Origin: Alphaproteobacteria bacterium
GTDB taxonomy: Bacteria; Pseudomonadota; Alphaproteobacteria; UBA2966
NCBI GenBank assembly: GCA_964291395.2
Contig: OZ219858.1
Coordinates: 1,088,001 to 1,152,000 of the forward strand
Direction of reading: 5' to 3'
Length of the DNA: 64,000 nucleotides
Shown here piece by piece: positions 15,633-28,530 of the stretch. The notes beneath the pieces were generated by a model. That model ran no database searches, was not told where the DNA came from, and saw only the letters and a program-made list of their open reading frames with translations. A program made the translations under genes and the position numbers. The stretch's first letter is position 1; every line of letters starts with the position of its first letter.

Positions 15633-16433
15633 ATGACCGCGGTCATCAGCCTCAACCATGTCTCGATGGAGTTCCCGGCCCTCCAGGGACGTGGGAGCGT
15701 CCAGGCGCTCGAGGACGTCAACTTCGAGTTCCGCGACAACGAATTCGTCGTGGCCCTCGGCGCTTCCGGCTGCGGCAAGACCACGCTGCTCAACGTCATC
15801 GCGGGCTTCCTCCCCCCTACCTCCGGAAAGGTCCTGCACAAGGGTATGCCGGTCAGCGGTCCCGGAAAGGACCGCGGCGTCGTCTTTCAAAAGCATGCCC
15901 TGCTGCCGTGGTTCGACGTGATCGAGAACACCGAGTTCGGCCTCAAGCTCCAGGGAATTGCGCGCGCCGAACGCCGGGCCAGAGCGCAGGAAAACCTGGA
16001 CCTGGTCGGGCTGTCGGACTTCGAGAACTACCCGATCTACCAGCTCTCCGGGGGCATGCAGCAGCGCGTCGGCCTCGCCCGGGCGCTGACCTGCGACCCC
16101 GACATGCTGCTCATGGACGAGCCCCTCGGCGCGCTCGATGCCTTCACCCGCGAGAACATGCAGGAGCTGATCCTCGACGTGTGGAGGAAGACGCGGAAGG
16201 TCGTGTTCTTCATCACCCATAGCGTCGAAGAAGCGTTGTTCATGGCGACCCGGCTCATCGTCATGTCCCCGCGGCCGGGCCGCATCACGCACGAGTACGA
16301 TCTCGACTTCTGCGGCCGGTTCTTCGAGACCGGCAACGCGAGGCAGGTCAAGTCCTCGTCCGAGTTCATCGAGGTGCGCGAGGAGATCCTGTCGATCATC
16401 CACGGCGAAGAAGTGGGTGAGCAGATCCCATGA
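15633..16433 (+). CDS. tauB: ABC ATP-binding protein (TauB type)
   Basis: GASGCGKT, DRGVVFQ, LSGGMQQR, MDEPLGALDAFTRE. Confidence 0.85.
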   Translation: MTAVISLNHVSMEFPALQGRGSVQALEDVNFEFRDNEFVVALGASGCGKTTLLNVIAGFLPPTSGKVLHKGMPVSGPGKDRGVVFQKHALLPWFDVIENTEFGLKLQGIARAERRARAQENLDLVGLSDFENYPIYQLSGGMQQRVGLARALTCDPDMLLMDEPLGALDAFTRENMQELILDVWRKTRKVVFFITHSVEEALFMATRLIVMSPRPGRITHEYDLDFCGRFFETGNARQVKSSSEFIEVREEILSIIHGEEVGEQIP

Positions 16434-17323
16434 ACCTCTGGATCTTCTCGCGGCGGAAACAACAGGCCGTCGACCAGTACGGGGCGCCGGGCCGCGGCAA
16501 CAGCACCTTCATCAGCGCGGTCACGATCGTGGCGATCCTCGGGGGGTGGTGGGTCGTCACCCACCTCGAGCTGATCCGCCCCCTGTTCCTGCCGTCTCCC
16601 GAATTGGTGATCTCGAAGTTCAACAGGATCGCGTGCACCGACTACTACCTCGAGAAGCTGCTCGTCGCGCTCGGCGCGCGTGACGGCGTCGAGGCCGAGT
16701 GCGCCGGTTTCAGCGAGCACACCCTCTACGAACATATCCTGTGGAGCCTTTACCGGGTATTTCTCTCCTTCTTCCTGGCGGTGGTGACCGCCGTTCCCAT
16801 CGGCATCGCGATGGGCATGAGCCGTTACGCCCGCGGCGTCTTCGACCCGCCGATCGAGTTCTATCGTCCGATCCCACCGCTGGCGTATCTCCCGCTGACG
16901 ATCATCTGGTTCGGGATCGGCGAGTCCGGCAAGCTGTTCCTGATCTATCTCGCCTGCTTCGCTCCCATCGCGATAAACGCCCGGGCCGGGGTGCGCTCGG
17001 TCTCGATCGAGCAGATTCATGCGGCCTATTCGATGGGCGGAACTCCCCAGCAGGTGGTTCGACAGGTGGTGATCAAGGCGGCACTCCCCGAGATCCTCAC
17101 CGGCATGCGGGTCGCGATCGCCTTCGGCTGGACCACGCTGGTCGCGGCGGAGATGGTCGCGGCCAAGGCGGGAATCGGCGTCATGGTTCTGAATGCCGCG
17201 CGGTTTCTGGCCACCGACATCGTGTTTCTCGGTATCGTGGTGATCGGGGCCGTCGCGTTCGTATTCGACCTCATCATGCGGAGAATCGAGCGGGCGCTCG
17301 TCCCGTGGAAGGGGAAGGTCTGA
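16430..17323 (+). CDS. tauC: ABC permease (TauC type)
   Basis: YRPIPPLAYLPL, GIGESGK, GWTTLVAAE, C-terminal VPWKGK; ATGA overlap with tauB. Confidence 0.85.
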   Translation: MNLWIFSRRKQQAVDQYGAPGRGNSTFISAVTIVAILGGWWVVTHLELIRPLFLPSPELVISKFNRIACTDYYLEKLLVALGARDGVEAECAGFSEHTLYEHILWSLYRVFLSFFLAVVTAVPIGIAMGMSRYARGVFDPPIEFYRPIPPLAYLPLTIIWFGIGESGKLFLIYLACFAPIAINARAGVRSVSIEQIHAAYSMGGTPQQVVRQVVIKAALPEILTGMRVAIAFGWTTLVAAEMVAAKAGIGVMVLNAARFLATDIVFLGIVVIGAVAFVFDLIMRRIERALVPWKGKV

Positions 17324-17514
17324 CGCGGCTGATCGACCGGTCGAAAACGTTGGCGGCGGCTCAATGACGATGGAATGGACGCCTGCTCCATGACACTCCC
17401 GGAGGCACCCCGACGCGTCCCACTCCTCTTTCCGGCAACCGTTCCACGCCCGGGCTGACGAAGTCCTCGCCATTTGAACTCGGCCCGCCCAAGACGCGGG
17501 AAGATTGCCAATTC

Positions 17515-17530
17515 TCCCCAATATTGGGGA
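17515..17530 (+). promoter_or_regulatory. Palindromic box 3, promoter of tmoX-type operon
   Basis: TCCCCAATATTGGGGA; TAACCT (17554-17559) starts 24 nt after the box. Confidence 0.65.
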
Positions 17531-17697
17531 CGCGGAAAACCCCGCAGTTGCCCTAACCTTCCCTGGTCGAATCGGCGACGCCCGGTCGGTGGCGGGCGCG
17601 GCCTCGTCCGCCGGCACAAGCCGCGCCGGACCTCGCCGCTGCCCCCGCCGACCACCCAAGAGGTCTGGTTTGGCTCGAGTAGGAGAGGAGAATTGAC

Positions 17698-18645
17698 ATG
17701 ATCAGCCGGAAGTCGATTGTTGGAAGTATCCTGGGTCTATGTTTGGCGGTCGCGGGTTCCGCGAACGCCGCCGATCCGATCCGCATCCCGCTTCACAATT
17801 GGACCAGCCAGTTGGTGGGCGCGGAAATTGTCGGTCAAATCCTGGAGGCGGCCGGGAGTGAAGTCGAATACGTGCCGGCCGACAGCGGCGCGGTCTACGA
17901 AGCCATGTGCGAGGGCGACGTCGACCTCGTGCACGAGGTCTGGCAAGGCGCCTTCGGCGTTGCCTTCGAAAAGCAGGTTGCCAAGGGATGCGTGATCGAC
18001 GCGGCCACGCACGCCGCTCTGACGCGCGAGGAATGGTGGTATCCGGCGTACGTCGAGGAGGCCTGCCCGGGCCTGCCCGACTGGCAAGCCTTGAACAAGT
18101 GCGCCGAGCTGTTCGCCACCTCCGAAACCGCGCCGAAAGGCCGGTTCCTGGGCGGCCCCGCCGAATGGCTGAAGGGAGACGACGAACGCGTCAAGGGGCT
18201 GGGCATGAACTTCGCCGTGATCAACGCGGGGTCAGCGGACGCGCTATGGGCGGAACTCGCCATCGCTTCCGAAAAGAATAAGCCGATCGTGCTCTTCAAC
18301 TGGACCCCGAATTTCATCGAGGCTCTTTATGAGGGGAAGTTCGTTGAATTCCCGGACTACTTCGAAGGGTGCCGTGAGGATGCGTCAATGGGGATCAATC
18401 CCGAGACCACACACGACTGCGGCAACCCCAAGGATGGCTATCTGAAGATCGGCGTGTGGAAGGAGTTTCCCGAGAATCACCCGGCCGCCTACAAGGTTGT
18501 CCAGAAGATTACCTTCTCCAATCTGGACATTGCCGTAATGTCCAAGCTGGTGGACGTCGACAAGATGGAAGTCAAGGACGCGGCCGCCAAATGGCTGAAG
18601 GACAACGAGGCCAAGTGGCAGGCCTGGCTTTCGCCCAGTGGATAG
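17698..18645 (+). CDS. tmoX: Glycine-betaine-family ABC substrate-binding protein, TmoX (TMAO-binding)-like
   Basis: PIRIPLHNWTSQ, EVWQGAFG, TREEWWYP, CPGLPDW, INAGSA.ALWAE and FNWTPNF resemble Roseobacter TmoX as recalled. Confidence 0.72.
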   Translation: MISRKSIVGSILGLCLAVAGSANAADPIRIPLHNWTSQLVGAEIVGQILEAAGSEVEYVPADSGAVYEAMCEGDVDLVHEVWQGAFGVAFEKQVAKGCVIDAATHAALTREEWWYPAYVEEACPGLPDWQALNKCAELFATSETAPKGRFLGGPAEWLKGDDERVKGLGMNFAVINAGSADALWAELAIASEKNKPIVLFNWTPNFIEALYEGKFVEFPDYFEGCREDASMGINPETTHDCGNPKDGYLKIGVWKEFPENHPAAYKVVQKITFSNLDIAVMSKLVDVDKMEVKDAAAKWLKDNEAKWQAWLSPSG

Positions 18646-18704
18646 TTTGCGACCGGGCTTGGGTGACCCATTGCCCGAGCTCGATCGTCGTTGATGGTCA
18701 GTCG

Positions 18705-18742
18705 AATGCCGGTCAACGGGCCGACCCGTTGACCGGCATTTT
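18705..18742 (+). terminator. Perfect 16-bp hairpin after tmoX
   Basis: AATGCCGGTCAACGGG-CCGA-CCCGTTGACCGGCATT followed by TT. Confidence 0.7.
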
Positions 18743-18873
18743 GATTCCAGACAACGCCTGAGACCACTCCGGGGTCGATGCCTGAACTGCCTGACGGACG
18801 TGCCTCTGGTGGTATCAAGCCTTGAAGTCGTTCCTGCAAGAGGACTGCACAGAACAGGAGGAATGATCGCTCG

Positions 18874-19896
18874 ATGGCTGAACCGGTAATTCTCTGTCGC
18901 GGACTTTGGAAGGTCTTCGGGCCGGAGCCTGCGGAATTCCTCGCCCGGCACGGCTCCAATCCGTCCTCCGAGGATTTTCAGGAAACAGGTCATATCGGTG
19001 CGGTCCAGGATGCCAATCTCGACGTTCAGCCCGGCGAGATCCTGGTAATCATGGGCCTGTCCGGATCAGGCAAGTCGACGGTGGTCCGCTGCCTCTCGCG
19101 TTTGGTGGAACCCACCGCTGGCCAGGTGTTGTTTCAGGGCACCGACCTCCTCAAGGCCACTGACAAGGAGTTGATCGAGATACGCCGTCACAAGATGGGC
19201 ATGGTGTTTCAGAATTTCGCGCTGCTCCCCCATCGGACGGTGATCGACAACGTCGCGTTTCCCCTGGAGGTGCAGGGCGTCGACCGCACGAAGCGACACG
19301 ACCGGGCCCGTGAGATCATCGAACTGGTGGGGTTGAAGGGCCGCGAGGGATACTATCCGCGAGAACTGTCGGGCGGCCAGCAGCAGCGCGTGGGAATTTC
19401 CCGATCGCTCGCCGTCGAGCCCGACGTGTGGTTCCTGGACGAACCCTTCTCGGCCCTCGATCCGCTGATCCGGCGGGAGATGCAGGACGAATTCCTCCGC
19501 CTCCAGAACCTGCTGCACAAAACGATCATCTTCATCACCCACGACTTCGACGAAGCCATCCGGCTCGCCGATCGCATCGCCATCATGTACGAGGGAAGGA
19601 TCGTGCAGCTCGGCACGGCCGAGGAGCTGGTTACGAAACCGGCCACCGACTACGTGCGGGCGTTCACGCGCGACATCCCCAAGGCGAAGCTGTTGACGGT
19701 CGCCAGCGTCATGGGACCCCCCGAAGAGGGCCAGGGGGACGGCCCTACGGTCAAGGACGATCAACTCATCGGCGACGTTGCAGGTCTGGTGATCGGCCAG
19801 GACAAGCCCGTAGCCGTCATGGACGCGTCAGGGACTCCGGTGGGCTCCCTGACGCGAGGGCAGGTGGTCGACGTGCTTTTCACCGACGGAAGCTGA
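18874..19896 (+). CDS. ProV-type ABC ATP-binding protein
   Basis: GLSGSGKST, LSGGQQQR, LDEPFSALDPLIRREMQ, C-terminal CBS-like region. Confidence 0.92.
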   Translation: MAEPVILCRGLWKVFGPEPAEFLARHGSNPSSEDFQETGHIGAVQDANLDVQPGEILVIMGLSGSGKSTVVRCLSRLVEPTAGQVLFQGTDLLKATDKELIEIRRHKMGMVFQNFALLPHRTVIDNVAFPLEVQGVDRTKRHDRAREIIELVGLKGREGYYPRELSGGQQQRVGISRSLAVEPDVWFLDEPFSALDPLIRREMQDEFLRLQNLLHKTIIFITHDFDEAIRLADRIAIMYEGRIVQLGTAEELVTKPATDYVRAFTRDIPKAKLLTVASVMGPPEEGQGDGPTVKDDQLIGDVAGLVIGQDKPVAVMDASGTPVGSLTRGQVVDVLFTDGS

Positions 19897-19898
19897 TC

Positions 19899-21953
19899 TT
19901 GGCCGATTCCGTTCTGTCCGTGTTCCAAGGGTCCCGGCAGGAGTCGGTGCTGTTCCGATCGCGCTGGCTCCTCGTGGCGATGCTGGGGATCGTCCTTCTC
20001 ATCCTGTTCCGGGACACGCTGCCGGACTGGGCGACGACTCCCCCCGATTCGTGGACTGCAAACCTACCCCTGCCGTTCCTGGTTTTCGGCGACGGGCTCT
20101 TCCCCGCTTTGTCGATCAAGGGCAGCAGCGCCGCCGATTGGTTCAACGACATCGTCTACTTTCTGCGCAACCACGAGATCCTGGGTCTGTTCACCTTCCG
20201 GGACGTCACGCGCGGTATCGCCGGACTGATCGTTTGGCCGCTGGATTTTTCCGAGGATCTGTTGATCTCGGGATTCTCGGATTGGGGAATTCCTCCGATC
20301 CCCTGGGTGATCACGGCCGCTCTGGCGGGAGTCCTGGGATGGTATCTGGGTGGCTGGGGTCTCGGGCTCCTGGCCGGCTCCTGCATCGTCTACTTCGCTG
20401 TCTTCGGCAAATGGAAACTGGCGATGACCACCCTGTCGCTGGTTCTGGTGACCGCGCCCATCGCCATCTTCCTCGGGCTGCTGCTGGGTATCTTCGCCAT
20501 CAACTGGCGACTGTTCGAGAAGGCGCTGTGGCCGATCCTCAACCTCATGCAGTCGTTGCCGCACTTCGGCTACCTGATCCCGATCGTGGTGTTCGTCGGA
20601 CTGGGCCATAAGGCAGGTGCAATTGCCACCATCCTTTTCGCGCTCCCGCCGATGGCGAAGATCACGATCCTGGGATTGCGCAGTGTCTCCGAAGAGGTGT
20701 TGGAGGCGGGCGTCATGGCCGGGTGCACGTCCCAGCAAATGCTCTGGCGCGTCCGGATTCCGGCGGCCCGACCGACTCTCATGGTCGGTGTGAACCAGGT
20801 CATCATGCAGTGCCTGGCCATGGTCGTGATCTCGGCGTTCATCGGAGCCAGGGGCCTCGGTATCGATCTCCTGTTCCGCCTTCAGACGCTCCAGTTGGGG
20901 CGCGCCCTGGAGAGCGGCATCGCGATTGTCCTGATGGCGGTCGCGCTCGACCGGCTCAGCCAGGCGCTCTCCGAGAAAGAACCGGTGCGTAAACCGGAGG
21001 GTCGCTTTTGGACCGTCCACCCACATATGACCGCTGCCGGGCTGGCAGTCGTGGTGGGAGGCGTCCTGGCCTACCTCGTTCCCGAGGCGGCAGCCCTGCC
21101 GCGCGAGATGACGGTAACGTTCGCACCCCAATGGGACGTTCTCATCAAGGCCATTGTTTCGGCGCTGTTCGAGCCCCTGAGCTTCATTCGAGACTATATG
21201 CCGCCCTACGTCCTCATCCCCATCCGCGGGTTCTTCGAACAACTTCCGTGGACGGTGTTCCTCGGTGCGGTGACCTTGGCAGGATGGCTGCTGGGTGGCT
21301 GGCGCCTGGCGGCACTCGGGGCCGCCTATATCGGCTTCATCGTCCTCTCAGGCTGGTGGACCGAGGCCATGGTGACCACTTACCTTGTCTTCGTCGCTGT
21401 CGTCATATGCGTGATTTTTGGATTTCCCATCGGCGTCTGGGCGTCCCGCCGCGACGGCAGGACCCGCGCGGTGGCGTTCCTCTGCGACACTTTGCAGACC
21501 TTCCCGTCGTTCATCTACCTCATTCCAGTCGTCATGCTGTTCCAGGTGGGGACCATTTCCCAGATCATGGCAATCGTGGTCTATGCCAGCATTCCCGTGG
21601 TCCGCTACACCTACGTCGGACTGCGCGCTGTTCCGCACGACATTGTCGAGGCCGCAATTTCTTCCGGATGCACCCCGTCCCAGATACTGTGGAAGGTGCG
21701 CATGCCGCTGGCGTTTCCCGAGATCATGCTGGGGCTGAACCAGACCATCATGTTCGGTCTCTTCATGGTCATGATCGCCGGATTCATCGGCGGGAATTAC
21801 GATCTGGCCCGGGAGATCTTCAAGGCCAAGGCTCAAAACGACGCCGGTCTCGGACTGCTCCTGGCGCTGTGCGTCGCATTTCTCGGGTTGACGGCAGATC
21901 GACTGATCTTGGCCTGGGCCAGCCGGCGCAAGGCACAACTCGGCTTGGCTTAA
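19899..21953 (+). CDS. ProW-type ABC permease with two fused permease domains
   Basis: Two repeats (MQSLPHFGYLIP / LQTFPSFIYLIP; EAG..AGCT / EAA..SGCT). TTG start just after the ATPase stop is inferred. Confidence 0.88.
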   Translation: MADSVLSVFQGSRQESVLFRSRWLLVAMLGIVLLILFRDTLPDWATTPPDSWTANLPLPFLVFGDGLFPALSIKGSSAADWFNDIVYFLRNHEILGLFTFRDVTRGIAGLIVWPLDFSEDLLISGFSDWGIPPIPWVITAALAGVLGWYLGGWGLGLLAGSCIVYFAVFGKWKLAMTTLSLVLVTAPIAIFLGLLLGIFAINWRLFEKALWPILNLMQSLPHFGYLIPIVVFVGLGHKAGAIATILFALPPMAKITILGLRSVSEEVLEAGVMAGCTSQQMLWRVRIPAARPTLMVGVNQVIMQCLAMVVISAFIGARGLGIDLLFRLQTLQLGRALESGIAIVLMAVALDRLSQALSEKEPVRKPEGRFWTVHPHMTAAGLAVVVGGVLAYLVPEAAALPREMTVTFAPQWDVLIKAIVSALFEPLSFIRDYMPPYVLIPIRGFFEQLPWTVFLGAVTLAGWLLGGWRLAALGAAYIGFIVLSGWWTEAMVTTYLVFVAVVICVIFGFPIGVWASRRDGRTRAVAFLCDTLQTFPSFIYLIPVVMLFQVGTISQIMAIVVYASIPVVRYTYVGLRAVPHDIVEAAISSGCTPSQILWKVRMPLAFPEIMLGLNQTIMFGLFMVMIAGFIGGNYDLAREIFKAKAQNDAGLGLLLALCVAFLGLTADRLILAWASRRKAQLGLA

Positions 21954-22219
21954 CGTCCACTGGATCAAAGCCCGAGTCCAACTAACGACCGTTTTTTTGG
22001 AAATCTGGTACCACCCCGTCAAGCGGGGTGAAATGTGTCCAACAATCCCGTCCAACAATCTGTGTCGAATTGCCCCAGGCTCTCTTTCTTTCTGAAGAGG
22101 TAGCGGGCATGAGTGATCGGGATCCTGCGCACACCGCCCAGTACGTGGCCGGGCTGGTGTGTGAGTTCGAGGGTGGCGTGGCAAAATGAAACACCAGGAA
22201 ACGGAGTTCAAAAAACCTG

Positions 22220-22438
22220 ATGAGACAATGCATCATCGCGGCGGCGGCAATGGCTGCTACCCTTACGACCGGTTGCAGTGAGATTGCCGCTGTCGCGACA
22301 GCACCGGTGACGGCAACCGTCATGACGATTGGTGCGAGGGTGAATGACAACGGCCCGTCCGCCGCTGAGTTCCGGCAATCATCCGCACGGCAAGCGGACG
22401 AAGCCCTGGTGCGGGCCCTGGCTGTGATCTCTCAATAG
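22220..22438 (+). CDS. Small putative lipoprotein
   Basis: MRQCIIAAAAMAATLTTG-C lipobox-like signal, 72 aa. Confidence 0.4.
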   Translation: MRQCIIAAAAMAATLTTGCSEIAAVATAPVTATVMTIGARVNDNGPSAAEFRQSSARQADEALVRALAVISQ

Positions 22439-22812
22439 GTTGTCCATCCGGGACTGAATCTCGGAAGCTGATGGGTGCTGAATGCCTGTCAACGAACCGA
22501 GAGGGGCGCCCCGGATGAACGTCCACATCGAAAGCCGCAGCGGCGCCGGTCTGGTTGAAACGTCAACTCGAACGTTCTGCCCTGTGGGAAGAAACGGTTG
22601 GAGGGACGAGGCTGAGCACGACTAGCGCTCAGCCGCTGACAGCCGCTAGGACACGCCAGACGGTCCTCGTCCAACAAACGACGTGACTGGCTACCCAGAG
22701 GGCGGGCCGACCGCTTTGATGGCTTGCAGGGCACATCTACAATCCCTTCGTTATAGTCCAGGCATTCGACAGCGATTGATAATCGAGTCATGCCCTACAG
22801 GAGGTCTCCCGG

Positions 22813-25438
22813 ATGAAAGCGGCATCTAGCGAAAGGATTGTTTTGTCTCTTTTGGTTGGCCTGATCGCGTGGGCCGGCGTTTCATCGGATGGGCGCCTCG
22901 CCGTGGCGCAGTCGCAGGAAGCGTGTCCCCTTCCCGCGGGCGAGACGCCTCCTGCGGATCCGCCCGTGACGGCCGGGCAGGTCGAGGCCGGCAGCGCCAC
23001 CCTGGCGGACTTCGCGCAGGCCTCGCTGGCGCAGTTCAAGCGCAGAGGCTCCGAAACTCTGACTCCGCAACAGATTGCCTTCTCGGGATGCCGGCTTCGA
23101 CTGGAAGGCGGTCCGTGGCGTTCCGGCTCCACGTACATCGTGACGCTGACGCCCGACGGCAGGGTGTACCTTCACGCGAAGGACATGTCCCTGTCGGCCG
23201 GGAGTCTGCATCCCCGAATTTACGCAGGGATTCTCTCGGCGCTCGGAGTTCCCCCGACGGTCCTGGCAGACCTGGCGTCTCCGGACCCCGCTACCAGGAG
23301 CGGGGCGCAGTCCATGCTCCTCGACCGGTTGAGAAGCGAGCCGCACGCCCCGTTCGACTTGACCGGCCCGGTGCCGGGCGTGCGACCGGGCATCCCGGGG
23401 GCGTCCGGATATGCAGGCGCCTATGTCTCGGTCAGTTCGGGACAACCGATCGTGCTGCTCGCAGGGTTCGATCTCACCGCATCTCACCTGGCTGAAGAGG
23501 CCGTCGATTACGGCGATCCGGCCATCACGGCCAGGGACGTGGTGGACCGCGGAACCCTGAAGGCCTTTGTCACGGAAGCATTGAAGTTCCTTGCCGGGAC
23601 CCTGAGAGAGGCGCGTTCGACCGCGGAATCCAGGGCTGCCTTCGCGAAGGCCAGGCTTGCGCTCAGAGATCCGAACGGACCGTGGAGGCACGGCTCCGTG
23701 TATCTCTACATTCTGGATCGGACCTCCAACGTCATCCTGTTTCACGGAGCGTTTCCCGACAGGTTCGAGCTCAAGCCTTTGGTGCCGACCGTCCGGGACG
23801 TCGTTACGGGAGAGCTCGTTCTGCCGCAGGTCATCGAGGCGGCGACCAGCAGTCCGGAAGGCGGCTTCGTGGAGTACTTACTTCGACGATCCCACCGACG
23901 ACACCGACAGCGCCGACATCCCCAAGCTGGGCTACGCCCGCGAGTTCGCCAGAACGATCACGACAAGTGACGGGACCGAGATTAGCACCAATCTCATCAT
24001 CGGTTCGGGCTTTTACGGAAGTCCCGACCGAGGCGGTGGCGGAGGGTGGCAGGACGCGGTCATCGAATCCGTGCTGCCCCAGGTCATGCGGGCCATGACC
24101 GCCAGCACGGTCGATGCCATCTCGGGGCGCATTCAGCGGGCGACGTCGGACACCCCGCCAGAGAAGGAGATCAACCTCGGCGGCTCCTCCACCCTCTCCC
24201 ATGCCCTGCTGACGAAGGGGCAGGCGCTGGGGAACGGCACTCTCGATCGTCAGGCGGCTGCTCGCGGGCTCTTCCTTCACCATGCCGCTCAACTTGCAGC
24301 GGGATCCGGCGGGAGCGGTCCGACCGGAGAGATCACGCTCTGGGGAAGCGGAGACTACCGCAACCTCTCCGGAGGGGGCTCGCAGAGCGTGAGCTACGAC
24401 GGCGACGTGGTGAGCGCCATCATCGGAGCCGATACCTGGATGAGCCCCGACATGATGGCGGGGGCGGCCCTCTCGCAGTCGCAAGGCACGGTGGATTACA
24501 CGGAACCCGACGGGCAATCGGGCGAGCTCACGACTACCCTGACGAGCGTCAATCCCTACGCGGTCTGGGGGTCGCCCGGCGGCATGAACCTGTGGCTCGC
24601 GGCCGGCTATGGCTGGGGCGAGCTCGAGGTCGAGGAGTCGGGCGGAACCCAAACGAGCGACATGACCCAGAAGATGGGGGCGGTGGGCGCGAGCGGGCCG
24701 CTGGTGGCCAGCGACGAGGTGATCGAAGGCGGCACCACGAACCTGCGGCTGAAAGGCGAGATGGCTTTCACGTGGGCCGATGTCGACGGCTCCGGGACAC
24801 TGGAGAGCACGAAGCTGGCTGCCAGCAGGCAGCGCCTGATGCTGGAAGGGGTCCACGACCGGGAACTCGCCTCGGGAGCGATATTCTCGCCCTCGCTCGA
24901 GGTCGGCATGCGGAACGACGGCGGGGACGGAGAGACCGGCACCGGTCTCGAGGCCGGGGGCGGCCTCCGGTATACCGACCCGGCACTGGGGCTGACCCTC
25001 GAGGGGCGGGCTCGGACACTGCTGTCTCACGGCGGCGACTACGAGGAGTCGGGCGTGAGCGGCCTGGTGCGGATCGATGCGGGCACGGAGGGCCTGGGGC
25101 TCGCGCTCAGCGTGCGACCGGCGTGGGGCCGGACGGCCAGCGGCGTGCAACGGTTGTGGGAGGCCGGGACGGCCGGGGGGACGGAACTGGCCAGTGAAGC
25201 GGCCGCGCGCCTGAACGCGCGGATCGCCTACGGCATCGGCGCCGCGTGGGGTGGCCGGGGCGTGCTGACGCCCTATACCGACGTGTCGCTGTCGGGGGAA
25301 GGGTCACGGCGGCTGAGCCTTGGCGGGCGGCTGGACATCGGACCGTCGGCCGGAATGAGCCTGGAAGGCGCGCACAGCCGGTCGGCGCGCGGCGCGGCCG
25401 ACCACAGTGTCATGCTGCGCGGCAGCCTGCACTGGTAG
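22813..25438 (+). CDS. Tandem Cache-like domain + autotransporter-type beta-barrel protein (frameshifted in this sequence)
   Basis: Signal peptide; two repeats with GPWR.GS.Y; Cache-type GFVEY(Y)FDDP...K.GY...IIGSGFY across a +1 shift near 23878; barrel region from LWGSGDYR to terminal LRGSLHW. Confidence 0.75.
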
Positions 25439-25531
25439 GCATGACGATCAAGCGCCGGGAGAGAGAGCTCGACGGTGATTGAGGACGCGAACAGCGCCTG
25501 AGGGTTTCACGGCGTCGTCCTCAGGCATCCA

Positions 25532-25576
25532 GGCCGCCGGGCGGGGTACTCGTCAATCCTCCCCCGCCCGGCGGCC
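25532..25576. terminator. 15-bp GC-rich hairpin downstream of the autotransporter gene
   Basis: GGCCGCCGGGCGGGG ... CCCCGCCCGGCGGCC, preceded by a smaller GCCTGAGG/CCTCAGGC hairpin. Confidence 0.5.
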
Positions 25577-25703
25577 ATACATTTGCATAAAGGACATCAT
25601 GTTAAGGTCTTTTGGGAGGCGAAGTGAGGGCTCTCTATAAGCTGAATCTGACGTTGGCTTGACGACCTGGCCACTACGGCGCAAGGGCGACGGGCCATGG
25701 AAG

Positions 25704-26095
25704 ATGAAGATACTGTGGGAACCCAACGAGGCGCAGCGATATCGCCGGAACATTTTGGCGCTCCCGGGTATCCTGGTCGTCGCTGGAATTGCTGGCGCCG
25801 ACCCACACGATCTCAGCCCATTTGGGGTGCGGTTCTCGCCGGGCATTCGGGGCGTCCTGGCCCTCGGTCTCGCCGTCATCGGGGTGCAGCTGTACTGGTA
25901 TGTCCTGAGGTACCACTACCTGAGAGACGAAGCGATTCTGCGCCTCCCCCAAACCTCTGGCGACTGGCCATTGCGCCATGAAGAGGATCCTTCTTTTGGG
26001 TGGAGAGTGTCGATTTGATCGCGAACTGGACCATGTTCGTTTTGACTCTTCTGTCATGGATCTTCATCGCCTGCTGGACCTCCGGATCATCATGA
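25704..26095 (+). pseudogene. Small 3-TM membrane protein, frameshifted near 26010
   Basis: Two TM segments in ORF 25659-26018. A third (LIANWTMFVLTLLSWIFIACW) continues in another frame to a TGA overlapping ATG 26092. Confidence 0.45.
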
Positions 26096-26499
26096 GCGGC
26101 GACAAGGGCAACGTCGTGACGCTGCCGCTCACGGTGGAGCGGAAGCGGCGCCTGCGGGACGCGATCAGGAGCAAGGGGTTCACGATCGAGAAGGTCGTGG
26201 GCTCGCTCCATCCTCGCTATTACGAGCTGCAGGAGCGGATCGACGAGGTCCTGCACCGCATCGACATCTACGAAGCCGCAGGCCGTCCGGACGAGGCGGC
26301 GAGGCTTCGCAAGGTGCTGGGCGAGGTGCTCGACAAGCTGTACCCCCATCGCCGGCGGCCGGACTGGGAGAAGTGGGAGGCGGAGCGGCTGAAGCACCAG
26401 CGGACCCGGATCGTAGCGGCGCCGCGGCACCGGATCTCGAACAGACAGCAGAAAGCCCGGAGGCCTGATCGACTCAGGCTCCATCTTTTGCGTATCTGA
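26092..26499 (+). CDS. Hypothetical basic, helical protein
   Basis: Strong GC3 codon bias from ATG 26092 and ATGA overlap with the upstream gene; no motif recognised. Confidence 0.5.
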   Translation: MSGDKGNVVTLPLTVERKRRLRDAIRSKGFTIEKVVGSLHPRYYELQERIDEVLHRIDIYEAAGRPDEAARLRKVLGEVLDKLYPHRRRPDWEKWEAERLKHQRTRIVAAPRHRISNRQQKARRPDRLRLHLLRI

Positions 26500-26566
26500 G
26501 GTTGTTGGTCAGCATGATTTTCTGCTCAAACATGTGGACCGTTTTCCGTCATGAGGGAAGAGACGG

Positions 26567-27403
26567 ATGGGCGCCATAGATTTCCGCTTCCGGCCTGTTG
26601 GGACGCAATCCATCACGCCAGAATTGACGCGCGACTACCTGCGCAAGATGCGCCTTGAACCGGCGCCATCATTCGAACGCCAGGACATCGGCCTGATGTT
26701 CCGGGAGATGGATGAGGCGGGCATCGAGATGGGCGTCGTCGGGGTGCCCGCGCCAACGGACAAGCCCGGATTCAAGCCAACCACGAACGAAGTGATCTCC
26801 GACATCGTCAAGCGCTATCCCGGCCGGTTCGTAGGATTGGGCTCGATCGATACGACGGATCCGGTTCGTGGCCTGGAAGAGATCGATCACGTGCTGGAAC
26901 TGGGTATGGTTGGCCTCACGGTGGAACCGAGCACGGCGCGGAAGTCCATGCGGTTCAACGACCGGCGCCTTTATCCGATCTACGAGGAGGCGCAAAAGCG
27001 CGGCCTGTTCGTAGTCACGGTGATGAGCGCCTTGCTGGGTCCCTACCTCGACGACTGCAAGCCTGAGTGGGTCGACCACGTGGCGACGGATTTCCCGAAC
27101 CTGAACATCGTTATTCAACATGCGGCCTGGCCGTACTCACGCGAAGCTATTGGACTCTGCTACAAGCGGCCGAACGTCTACCTCGTTCCCGGTCAGTACA
27201 TCCACTACGAGTTCGCAGGGTCTGAGGACTACGTAAAGGCGGCGAACCGACAGCTTTCCGACCAGATCATGTACGGCAGCGTCTATCCCAATTGCGGGCC
27301 GCTGAAGGAAGTGATGGAGATCGTCGACAACCTTGGCTTCGCGAGCGATGAGATCAAGCACAAATATCTGGAAGGAAATGCCCGGCGGTTGCTGGGGCTA
27401 TGA
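26567..27403 (+). CDS. Amidohydrolase-2 family protein with non-canonical metal motif
   Basis: MDEAGI, YPGRFVGLG, LYPIYE, DFPNLNIVIQHAAWP, GNARRLLG. N-terminus is IDFRFRP and C-terminus YGSVYP. Confidence 0.85.
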   Translation: MGAIDFRFRPVGTQSITPELTRDYLRKMRLEPAPSFERQDIGLMFREMDEAGIEMGVVGVPAPTDKPGFKPTTNEVISDIVKRYPGRFVGLGSIDTTDPVRGLEEIDHVLELGMVGLTVEPSTARKSMRFNDRRLYPIYEEAQKRGLFVVTVMSALLGPYLDDCKPEWVDHVATDFPNLNIVIQHAAWPYSREAIGLCYKRPNVYLVPGQYIHYEFAGSEDYVKAANRQLSDQIMYGSVYPNCGPLKEVMEIVDNLGFASDEIKHKYLEGNARRLLGL

Positions 27404-27543
27404 CCTGTCAGCGCCATTTTGTCTGAAGGCGGCCTGGCATGGGGTCGGCCGCATGCGCGACCGCACCAGTTCCGCCTGCCGGTAGGTGCCGTGCTTGGCG
27501 GAGAAGTGCTTGACGTGCGTACCGTGCAAGACTCTACCTTGGG

Positions 27544-27948
27544 TCAGCTCTTGCCCGATTTACGGGCGACGAAATCGATCTCGACCAGCGCCTCGCGCGC
27601 CAATCCACTCACGCCGACGCAGGTTCGCGCCGGCTGTCGATCAGCATTGAAATAGCTCGCGTAAACCGCGTTCATTGCTGCGTAATCGCGACGAAAGTCG
27701 GTAAGGAACACGCGTGCACTCACCACGTCCGTCAAGGCGTAGCCGGCGTGACCGAGGACGATCTCAAGATTATGAAATATGGTGCGGGTCTGGTTTTCGA
27801 TGCCCGACGGCAACGGCGCATCGTTATCGGCTGGGTCGATCGGAAGCTGACCGGTAACGAACAGCCAGCCATCGACTTCGACTGCGTGGCTATATGGCGC
27901 CACCGGGGCTGGCGCATCGCCGACCATGTGAAAAATTCGATCGTCCAT
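27544..27948 (-). CDS. RidA/YjgF-family protein
   Basis: RBS GAGGAGG; PVAPYSHAV, VTGQLP, MNAVY, PARTCVGV, LVEID. Confidence 0.9.
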   Translation of the reverse strand: MDDRIFHMVGDAPAPVAPYSHAVEVDGWLFVTGQLPIDPADNDAPLPSGIENQTRTIFHNLEIVLGHAGYALTDVVSARVFLTDFRRDYAAMNAVYASYFNADRQPARTCVGVSGLAREALVEIDFVARKSGKS

Positions 27949-28530
27949 GGCGACCTCCTCATCCTGTCGATCCGGCGTTCCCCAAATGGGCGGGCGGAGA
28001 AGTAACCGTCCGTCCGCCTGCCTCCCTTCCCCTGTGCTGCGGCGGTATTGCCATCGGGCGCCCACCCTTGCTGATGTTCCGATAGGGTGGTCGATCCGGG
28101 AGCGTTCCGTAATGTGCAACGGCCCTACTTGGAATGCTGAAAGCGTCTCACGTCGGCGTGCCGCTGGTGTACGCCCTAATGGGGGACGTCGGCAATAGCC
28201 CGTATCGCCGTCCTACGGCCAACGGCATTTCCGGGGGAATCGTTCGGCCAACCTGTAAGAGAGGAGGTGGATCTTTATCAGCTGGTTCGAATCCCCTGAA
28301 CTCCCGGCGCGGGGACGCCGAGTGGCATTGGGTCGTGTGGGACGCTGAACGTCGGCGCCTTCTCGACTCCAGGGATCCTCCGGACAAGCGGCTCCGCGCC
28401 TGTTCCTACATGCGGGTGCGGTAGTTCGTTTCCGGGAAGCGCCGGTTACCGACGCCGATCTGGGCAGGGAGGACCTCCGGCCTTAGGAACCGCCGACAGA
28501 TCCTGGGATCGGATTGAAGGTCAGTAATTC

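Follow-up and report, generated by a model that had tools for sequence, protein, structure and literature searches.

Here, we describe a locus on the + strand (22813-25438) of a 64,000-nucleotide stretch of contig OZ219858.1 (GenBank assembly GCA_964291395.2) from an Alphaproteobacteria bacterium, the whole stretch being referred to below as the window. The locus is almost certainly one gene, whose product combines two Cache-fold modules with an autotransporter barrel and has no output domain. Taken as a whole, it is probably best explained as a type Va autotransporter that displays tandem Cache modules and for which binding itself is the job. The evidence comes from the comparison of the locus with intact relatives, from fold and profile searches of the passenger and the barrel, and from a set of four pocket residues in the second module that is invariant among the autotransporter-type members.

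One gene split by a surplus base

In the list of open reading frames (ORFs), the locus appears as two frames, 22813..23970 (385 aa) and 23657..25438 (593 aa), which overlap in neighbouring reading frames. The source genome holds two copies of the family, and the second, P0001 (876 aa), lies intact on another contig. When this paralogue was compared with the window by tblastn, its residues 25-362 aligned in one frame up to nt 23877 at 64% identity and its residues 363-876 in the next frame from nt 23879 at 69% identity. Exactly one base is surplus, at 23877/23878, where the DNA reads GAG TAC T TAC TTC inside the motif GGFVEY/YFDDP (the slash marks the break). With the pieces 22813-23877 and 23879-25435 joined, the gene encodes 355 (P0002) plus 519 (P0003) residues, that is 874 in all; the intact orthologues, from a cluster of at least 90% identity, have 871, 872 and 864.

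Three-frame translation and DNA alignment to P0001 and to the syntenic orthologue L059 (from a metagenome-assembled genome, MAG, titled 'uncultured Ectothiorhodospiraceae bacterium') revealed four further insertions, arranged as two frame-restoring pairs at 24026 (+1)/24048 (+2) and 24249 (+1)/24296 (+2). The first pair turns ...PTEAVAEGG... into SPDRGGGGGW, the neighbouring frame still reading PTEAVAEGG as the paralogue does, and the second turns RRLLAGSSFTMPLN into QAAARGLFLHHAAQL, with the neighbouring frame reading RRLLAGSSFTMPLN as in the orthologues. Neither P0001 nor L059 has any of the five insertions. Likewise, the contigs of close relatives in four of the four public runs examined carry one base fewer at 23877/8, one fewer at 24247/9 and two fewer at 24294-7.

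The intact relatives are single ORFs. At 53 of the 79 best loci, the longest + strand ORF measures 780-1060 aa and ends in W or F, and the gene is also unbroken in P0001, in L059 and in P0274, a near-identical allele with the same signal peptide. Read instead as two genes, the locus would encode a secreted Cache protein of 385 aa and, independently of it, an outer-membrane protein of 593 aa. This would match the ORFs as assembled, and the 385-aa ORF is recorded in databases as a called protein (P0272). However, the 593-aa ORF begins with 74 residues that are module 2 read out of frame and lack a signal peptide, the break sits inside a β-strand motif of that module, and a single ORF is found both in the orthologue at this locus and in all close relatives; we regard this reading as highly improbable. 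Even less credit can be given to programmed +1 ribosomal frameshifting past the extra base. A single extra base does lie between two long frames, but the site is unconserved, as P0001, L059, P0274 and the contigs of all four runs are in frame there, and frameshifting leaves the four neighbouring insertions unexplained. The in-frame relatives, the further insertions and the single-ORF orthologues led us to reject both readings.

An earlier reading, made from the sequence only, had proposed that one extra base near 23878 splits a single gene. The tblastn comparison and the intact relatives, at the same and at other loci, bear this out. Its one-base repair does join the two ORFs into a protein of about 874 aa but overlooked the four compensated insertions. 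The motifs that it quoted (two repeats, FHGAFP, GGFVEY/YFDDP, PKLGYA, IIGSGFY and LRGSLHW) were all recovered in P0002/P0003, and the signal peptide that it named can be seen in the translation. The features of the locus are as follows.

22716..22743, + strand: promoter-like site, TTGATG, 16-nt spacer, TACAAT; one site against 0.5 expected in shuffles, a weak consensus match
22799..22804, + strand: ribosome-binding site AGGAGG, 8 nt before the ATG at 22813; read from the sequence
22813..22908, + strand: predicted Sec signal peptide, residues 1-32, with a hydrophobic core followed by A-x-A (cleavage motif AVA/Q); read from the translation, identical in P0274
22909..23523, + strand: Cache-like module 1, with a degenerate pocket and two conserved Cys; from hhalign to module 2 and the AlphaFold element order
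23524..24019, + strand: Cache module 2 (sCache_2 type), with the Tyr/His/Tyr/Lys set, broken by the extra base; from profile and fold searches
23877..23878, + strand: surplus frame-shifting base, the sole uncompensated insertion; from alignment to relatives and run contigs
24026..24049, + strand: compensated insertion pair 1, about 8 codons out of the ancestral frame; from comparison with the paralogue
24041..24148, + strand: linker α-helix before the barrel; AlphaFold helix, residues 55-90 of P0003
24249..24297, + strand: compensated insertion pair 2, about 15 codons out of the ancestral frame; from comparison with orthologues
24332..25438, + strand: type Va autotransporter β-barrel ending in Trp, plus stop; from Pfam PF03797, AlphaFold and Foldseek

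A scan for a terminator 3' of the gene found none.

The passenger consists of two tandem Cache-like modules

The passenger was modeled with AlphaFold from the intact paralogue P0001 (376 residues), using an alignment of 53 family members, which yielded a predicted local distance difference test score (pLDDT) of 92.4 and a predicted template modeling score (pTM) of 0.89. Two units with the same order of elements, namely two helices, two strands, helices and three strands, were seen in the model. A Foldseek search of the PDB placed sCache_2 domains in all of the top four positions (4k08, 2qhk, 5g4y and 4exo, E 2.5e-4 to 7e-4), with tandem-PAS proteins ranking after them at high root-mean-square deviation (rmsd). 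VIA-align, which is independent of Foldseek, matched module 2 to 4k08 (Z 12.9, rmsd 3.3 over 134 residues), to 4exo (Z 12.8) and to TlpB (3ub6, Z 11.2). At the level of profiles, HMMER comparison of the family with PDB sequences retrieved 2qhk (E 3.7e-9) and 4exo (E 8.7e-9), and hhalign related module 1 to module 2 with a probability of 99.7% (E 1e-25, 143 columns).

Distant members of the family reach the Pfam sCache_2 profile directly, with two stretches each in P0260 (E 1.9e-26, 93.3 bits) and P0236 (E 1.7e-17, 64.2 bits) and with seven in P0147 (E 7.3e-87, 289.5 bits), a protein that also carries Big_2 and an Autotransporter domain. The G005 copy of the family likewise passes the Cache hidden Markov model (HMM), with 29.0 bits against a cut-off of 25. 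The arrangement is not dCache-like: in the model and by hhalign, each module has its own N-terminal helix pair and the modules are direct repeats, and the dCache_2 matches in P0001 cover only positions 90-182 of 298. As modeled, the passenger is not a β-helix; it is a pair of tandem homologous sCache_2-like modules.

The barrel, its linker and the missing output domain

The C-terminal part of the protein matches the Pfam Autotransporter family (PF03797), with E 5.1e-12 and 46.5 bits for the 593-aa window ORF and 40.6 bits for P0001, the cut-off being 26. The AlphaFold model of P0003 comprises a 36-residue helix (residues 55-90) followed by the barrel, whose blocks have pLDDT values of 83-97. 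With this model as query, the best PDB matches by Foldseek were EstA (E 5.9e-9), BrkA (TMt 0.74-0.77), EspP (TMt 0.72), Hbp, NalP and AIDA-I. Both ends of the protein, read by eye from the translations, show the expected marks, a signal peptide with a hydrophobic core and cleavage motif at one and a terminal Trp at the other.

No signalling output domain, whether a methyl-accepting chemotaxis protein (MCP) domain, a kinase or a cyclase, was found in Pfam and NCBIfam scans of P0001, and NCBIfam returned no family for P0001, P0003, P0132, P0135, P0009, P0124 or P0125. These results agree with the sequence-only reading, which had assigned a Cache/PAS-like fold to the N-terminal repeats (now modeled at high confidence, with module 2 at Z 11.2-12.9 and module 1 homologous to it), an autotransporter barrel with a preceding helix to the C-terminus, and no signalling output to the whole. 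Of the two profile matches that it anticipated, the Autotransporter match on the window pieces lies above cut-off, and the Cache matches lie below.

A conserved pocket in module 2

In the sCache_2 domain of PscD, residues Tyr90, His103, Tyr143 and Lys156 hydrogen-bond the carboxylate of the ligand, and excerpts of the same source describe Tyr, His and Lys as conserved across single-Cache domains (PMC5062169, excerpts). A Tyr/His/Tyr/Lys set, borne by the motifs VYLY...FH...GGFVEY...PKxGY, is invariant in module 2 of 54 of the 54 autotransporter-type members, and HMMER aligns its first Tyr, its His and its Lys with identical residues of 2qhk/4exo. In its placement, the set is similar to the residues with which the sCache_2 domains of chemoreceptors bind carboxylates. 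In module 1, the Tyr and the His are retained, but the second Tyr and the Lys are lacking, both positions being Ala in most members. Mean pairwise identity is 0.68 in module 2, 0.58 in module 1 and 0.57 in the barrel; the linker helix, at 0.72, is the most conserved part of the family. In the window copy, the surplus base at 23877/23878 directly follows the codon of the second pocket Tyr of module 2.

Assembly artefact or recent pseudogene

We consider it somewhat likelier that the broken copy in the window is a consensus artefact of assembly than that it is a very recent pseudogene. The five insertions, with no deletion among the differences, fall within 420 bp, no other frame-breaking indel occurs in the 2.6-kb gene, and the comparison with L059 lists no indel of any kind within either the ABC permease gene upstream or the amidohydrolase gene downstream. 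At about 24030-24060, letters of the paralogue and of the orthologue are finely intermixed in the window, together with extra bases, which has the look of a mixed-read consensus, and the contamination/heterogeneity estimate of the source genome is 9.01%. Furthermore, the same allele is intact in P0274, and the ribosome-binding site and start codon of the window gene are preserved.

These points all speak against a true pseudogene, in which the lineage would be losing this paralogue and the five insertions would be real mutations. That account nonetheless keeps a substantial, if lesser, probability: all five differences are present in the deposited sequence, the 385-aa ORF already stands on record as a called protein, and the other paralogue of the genome, which is unbroken, could take over the function. 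No public run searched contains the stretch in the window's own version, the best share of words being 0.47; the run contigs show no repaired form of it, though equally no window version at all.

A family shared among sponge-associated bacteria

The family was searched at several levels. Among 40 relatives of the source genome, only one, of the same genus, holds it, in three open frames. In a collection of 5.8 billion proteins, 1328 of 8000 scored candidates matched at E <=0.001; among the best 120 listed matches, most are 836-880 aa long and 64-77% identical, and the database names of relatives are only 'autotransporter domain-containing protein' or 'hypothetical protein'. Comparison of the passenger with 50%-identity clusters gave 480 clusters, 126 of them at E <=1e-30, including multi-repeat forms of up to 2142 aa. 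A search of species-representative genomes with a 14-sequence alignment as query yielded 287 candidate stretches, of which 280 were confirmed.

According to MAG titles, the best 79 loci belong to Pseudomonadota (51, Alpha- and Gammaproteobacteria), Gemmatimonadota (6), Latescibacterota (6), Binatota (4, Binatia), Nitrospirota (2, Nitrospirales), Acidobacteriota (2), Thermodesulfobacteriota (2), Myxococcota-labelled 'Deltaproteobacteria' (2) and Chloroflexota (1, Dehalococcoidia), with three unplaced; several of these loci lie on Mb-scale contigs. A FastTree phylogeny of 56 rows was built from the 53 loci with a W/F-ending + strand ORF of 780-1060 aa, together with P0001, P0077 and P0003; it omits 26 loci, including the forms with a type IX secretion system (T9SS) tag described below, truncated contigs, multi-repeat forms and loci with a longer other gene. 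The tree mixes phylum labels, the four Binatia rows, for example, requiring four changes. Such mixing is suggestive of transfer without being proof of it, as the labels come from the submitters and groups are split by paralogues as well. Tandem neighbours belonging to the family occur in some MAGs, as in L029/L068 (one contig, 471820-480999 and 479531-487810) and L078-L089.

The habitat of the family was read from the run labels. Of the 22 runs listed for the stretch, 12 are labelled sponge metagenome. Each of four public runs holds 123-524 contigs at >=88% identity, with depth peaking over the GGFVEYYFDDP...PK segment, and in run X1, which bears the sponge metagenome label, 382 contigs lie on the gene at that identity. 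This putative surface module is common to sponge-associated bacteria that carry the labels of at least nine phyla, at 55-77% protein identity.

The head is also found on a second export device. At the Latescibacterota/Gemmatimonadota loci L080, L088 and L086, the head, which is 64-68% identical to that of P0001 over residues 4-445 of the latter, is followed by a T9SS type A sorting domain, detected by TIGR04183 with 42.4, 44.5 and 35 bits, respectively, against a cut-off of 23. The presence of one head on two unrelated export devices argues that the head works outside the cell. In P0132, P0135 and locus L079, the tandem-Cache head bears a tail that is neither an autotransporter barrel nor a T9SS tag, and domain-family searches of these tails found no family.

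A difference of another kind separates the window from L059. The two are syntenic over window positions 19831-28445 and 93.5% identical overall, with the flanks, the signal-peptide region and the barrel at 96-100% but the passenger (22828-24028) at only 64-78%. The borders of the divergent passenger fall just past the signal-peptide region and at the linker helix. From these alignments, the passenger difference looks like a cassette-type replacement of alleles between very close genomes.

Genomic context

Directly upstream, on the same strand (15633-21953), lies a betaine-type ABC transporter cluster made up of two ABC ATPases, a permease, an OpuAC substrate-binding protein and a long fused double permease. 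The neighbour of the paralogue, on contig C1, is a glutaminyl-tRNA-synthetase-like gene, named by eye from its sequence. Within the 860-bp gap before the gene, at 22220-22438, there is a 72-aa ORF without a Pfam match, whose hydrophobic N-terminus ends in ...LTTGC and is lipoprotein-like. Downstream, at 25978-26499, a 173-aa ORF belongs to no Pfam family; in the alignment with L059, single bases are missing from the window at 26003 and 26455, and 12 are added at 26312. This ORF is either non-coding or another frame difference between the two assemblies.

Proposed function and its alternatives

In the proposed mechanism, the Sec signal peptide would take the protein to the periplasm, the C-terminal barrel would insert into the outer membrane, and the passenger of about 375 residues would thread to the cell surface, a route taken by analogy from the known type Va autotransporters. 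Lacking a transmembrane helix as well as any kinase, MCP or cyclase part, the protein could not signal in the usual manner. At the cell surface, the passenger may hold a small carboxylate ligand, either free or on a host or microbial polymer, and the purpose of the binding could be capture, adhesion or host recognition. We infer that surface ligand binding is probably the function. That the ligand is of the carboxylate type is a more tentative proposal, for which we claim plausibility, and the choice of sponge matrix glycans with acidic groups as its target is speculation.

Several observations weigh against this interpretation. In its assembled form, the copy in the window would give rise to a product of 385 aa that ends within module 2 and lacks the barrel. 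The 385-aa ORF matches, among the Pfam Cache families, dCache_2 alone, at 13.5 bits against a cut-off of 26.5, and P0001 scores a sub-threshold 20.4 and 12.1 bits against the Cache HMMs; because of these sub-threshold scores, Cache membership rests on the profile comparison, the fold and the distant relatives. The VIA-align matches span only model residues 210-376, that is module 2, and the fold of module 1 is supported through its homology to module 2 and its order of secondary-structure elements. In the pocket, the second Tyr aligns with a Phe of 2qhk, one position past the Tyr of that structure, which makes its assignment tentative. The PF03797 match spans positions 1-155 of 255, the P0003 model has an overall pLDDT of 70.8 with segments 92-149 and 401-443 below 50, and DSSP counts about 18 strand segments after residue 152 of this model, as opposed to the classical 12. 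With regard to spread, the phylum labels were given by the submitters and contigs of foreign origin can occur in bins, and the GC content of the gene (0.679) is no outlier in the genome (0.639, standard deviation 0.029, with 7.7% of 2.6-kb windows as high) and gives no transfer signal. Lastly, the two paralogues have unrelated neighbours, so that context offers no clue to a pathway.

The passenger might also be a mere scaffold, that is, an adhesin that binds a protein or polysaccharide by its surface and leaves the small-molecule pocket unused. Adhesins and enzymes are the commonest autotransporter passengers, the passenger is the part exchanged between near-identical genomes, as would be expected under diversifying pressure, and half of the pocket set is gone from module 1. 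A scaffold, however, does not predict the Tyr/His/Tyr/Lys set of module 2 to be invariant, nor module 2 to be better conserved than module 1 and the barrel, and we judge this explanation unlikely.

Returning to surface ligand binding, a bolder extension, to which we likewise assign a low probability, would make the head a community-wide 'resident badge'. In this view, the head would act as a surface receptor, exchanged horizontally, for one carboxylated ligand of sponge origin, be it a metabolite or an acidic group on the glycans of the host matrix. Each phylum would mount it on the export device at its disposal (type V or type IX), it would be shuffled as a cassette between strains, and it would serve host attachment or recognition and sparing from phagocytosis. 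The discrimination of resident symbionts from food bacteria by sponges is an open question, and a conserved, pocket-bearing surface protein of many symbiont lineages is a concrete and easily expressed candidate for it, whose ligand can be screened directly.

Our literature search returned no paper on a Cache passenger in an autotransporter. An excerpt of Haber et al. (PMC7848895) reports that cache domains are enriched in sponge Thaumarchaeota and proposes surface recognition; this fits the recognition idea but, in that excerpt, concerns proteins other than a tandem-Cache autotransporter. A further paper found in the search on sponge symbionts and autotransporters, PMC10947273, concerns an inverse autotransporter, which is not of this family.

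Comparison with known systems

Among the extracellular sensor modules of bacteria, Cache domains are the commonest, and they are known as the inputs of signalling proteins. Here, the fold appears to be used without an output and to be put on the surface by a secretion device. The closest counterparts of module 2 are the sCache_2 receptors, including PscD (5g4y), Adeh_3718 (4k08), the Vibrio parahaemolyticus MCP (2qhk/4exo) and Helicobacter pylori TlpB (3ub6), which have the same fold; the Tyr/His/Tyr/Lys set of module 2 lies at the motif positions with which PscD binds carboxylates. In contrast to our protein, these receptors are periplasmic and combine flanking transmembrane helices with an MCP, kinase or cyclase output; here neither is present, and export past the outer membrane is predicted. 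They further differ in that our modules are in tandem, each with its own N-terminal helices, and identity to the solved domains is only 16-25%.

Extracellular Cache modules without a kinase or chemotaxis output are also found in animals, in the calcium-channel subunit alpha2delta and in CACHD1. Weak fold matches of the passenger to both were obtained, with Foldseek (7vfs_B) and VIA-align (8s7c_A, Z 8.1), and alpha2delta binds small amino-acid-like ligands. These proteins differ in being eukaryotic, of the dCache_1 type and equipped with VWA domains, and the evidence of kinship is confined to the fold. The T9SS proteins at L080, L086 and L088, in turn, share the tandem-Cache head and end in the type A sorting domain, not in a barrel.

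Autotransporter passengers are most often adhesins or enzymes. In overall plan, the protein is most readily compared with EstA of Pseudomonas aeruginosa (3kvn), with which it shares a signal peptide, a globular passenger, a linker helix and a barrel ending in an aromatic residue. The passenger of EstA is a lipase, whereas that of our protein is a pair of sensor-fold modules without a match to a catalytic family, and it would add a sensor-fold type to the non-β-helical passengers of autotransporters.

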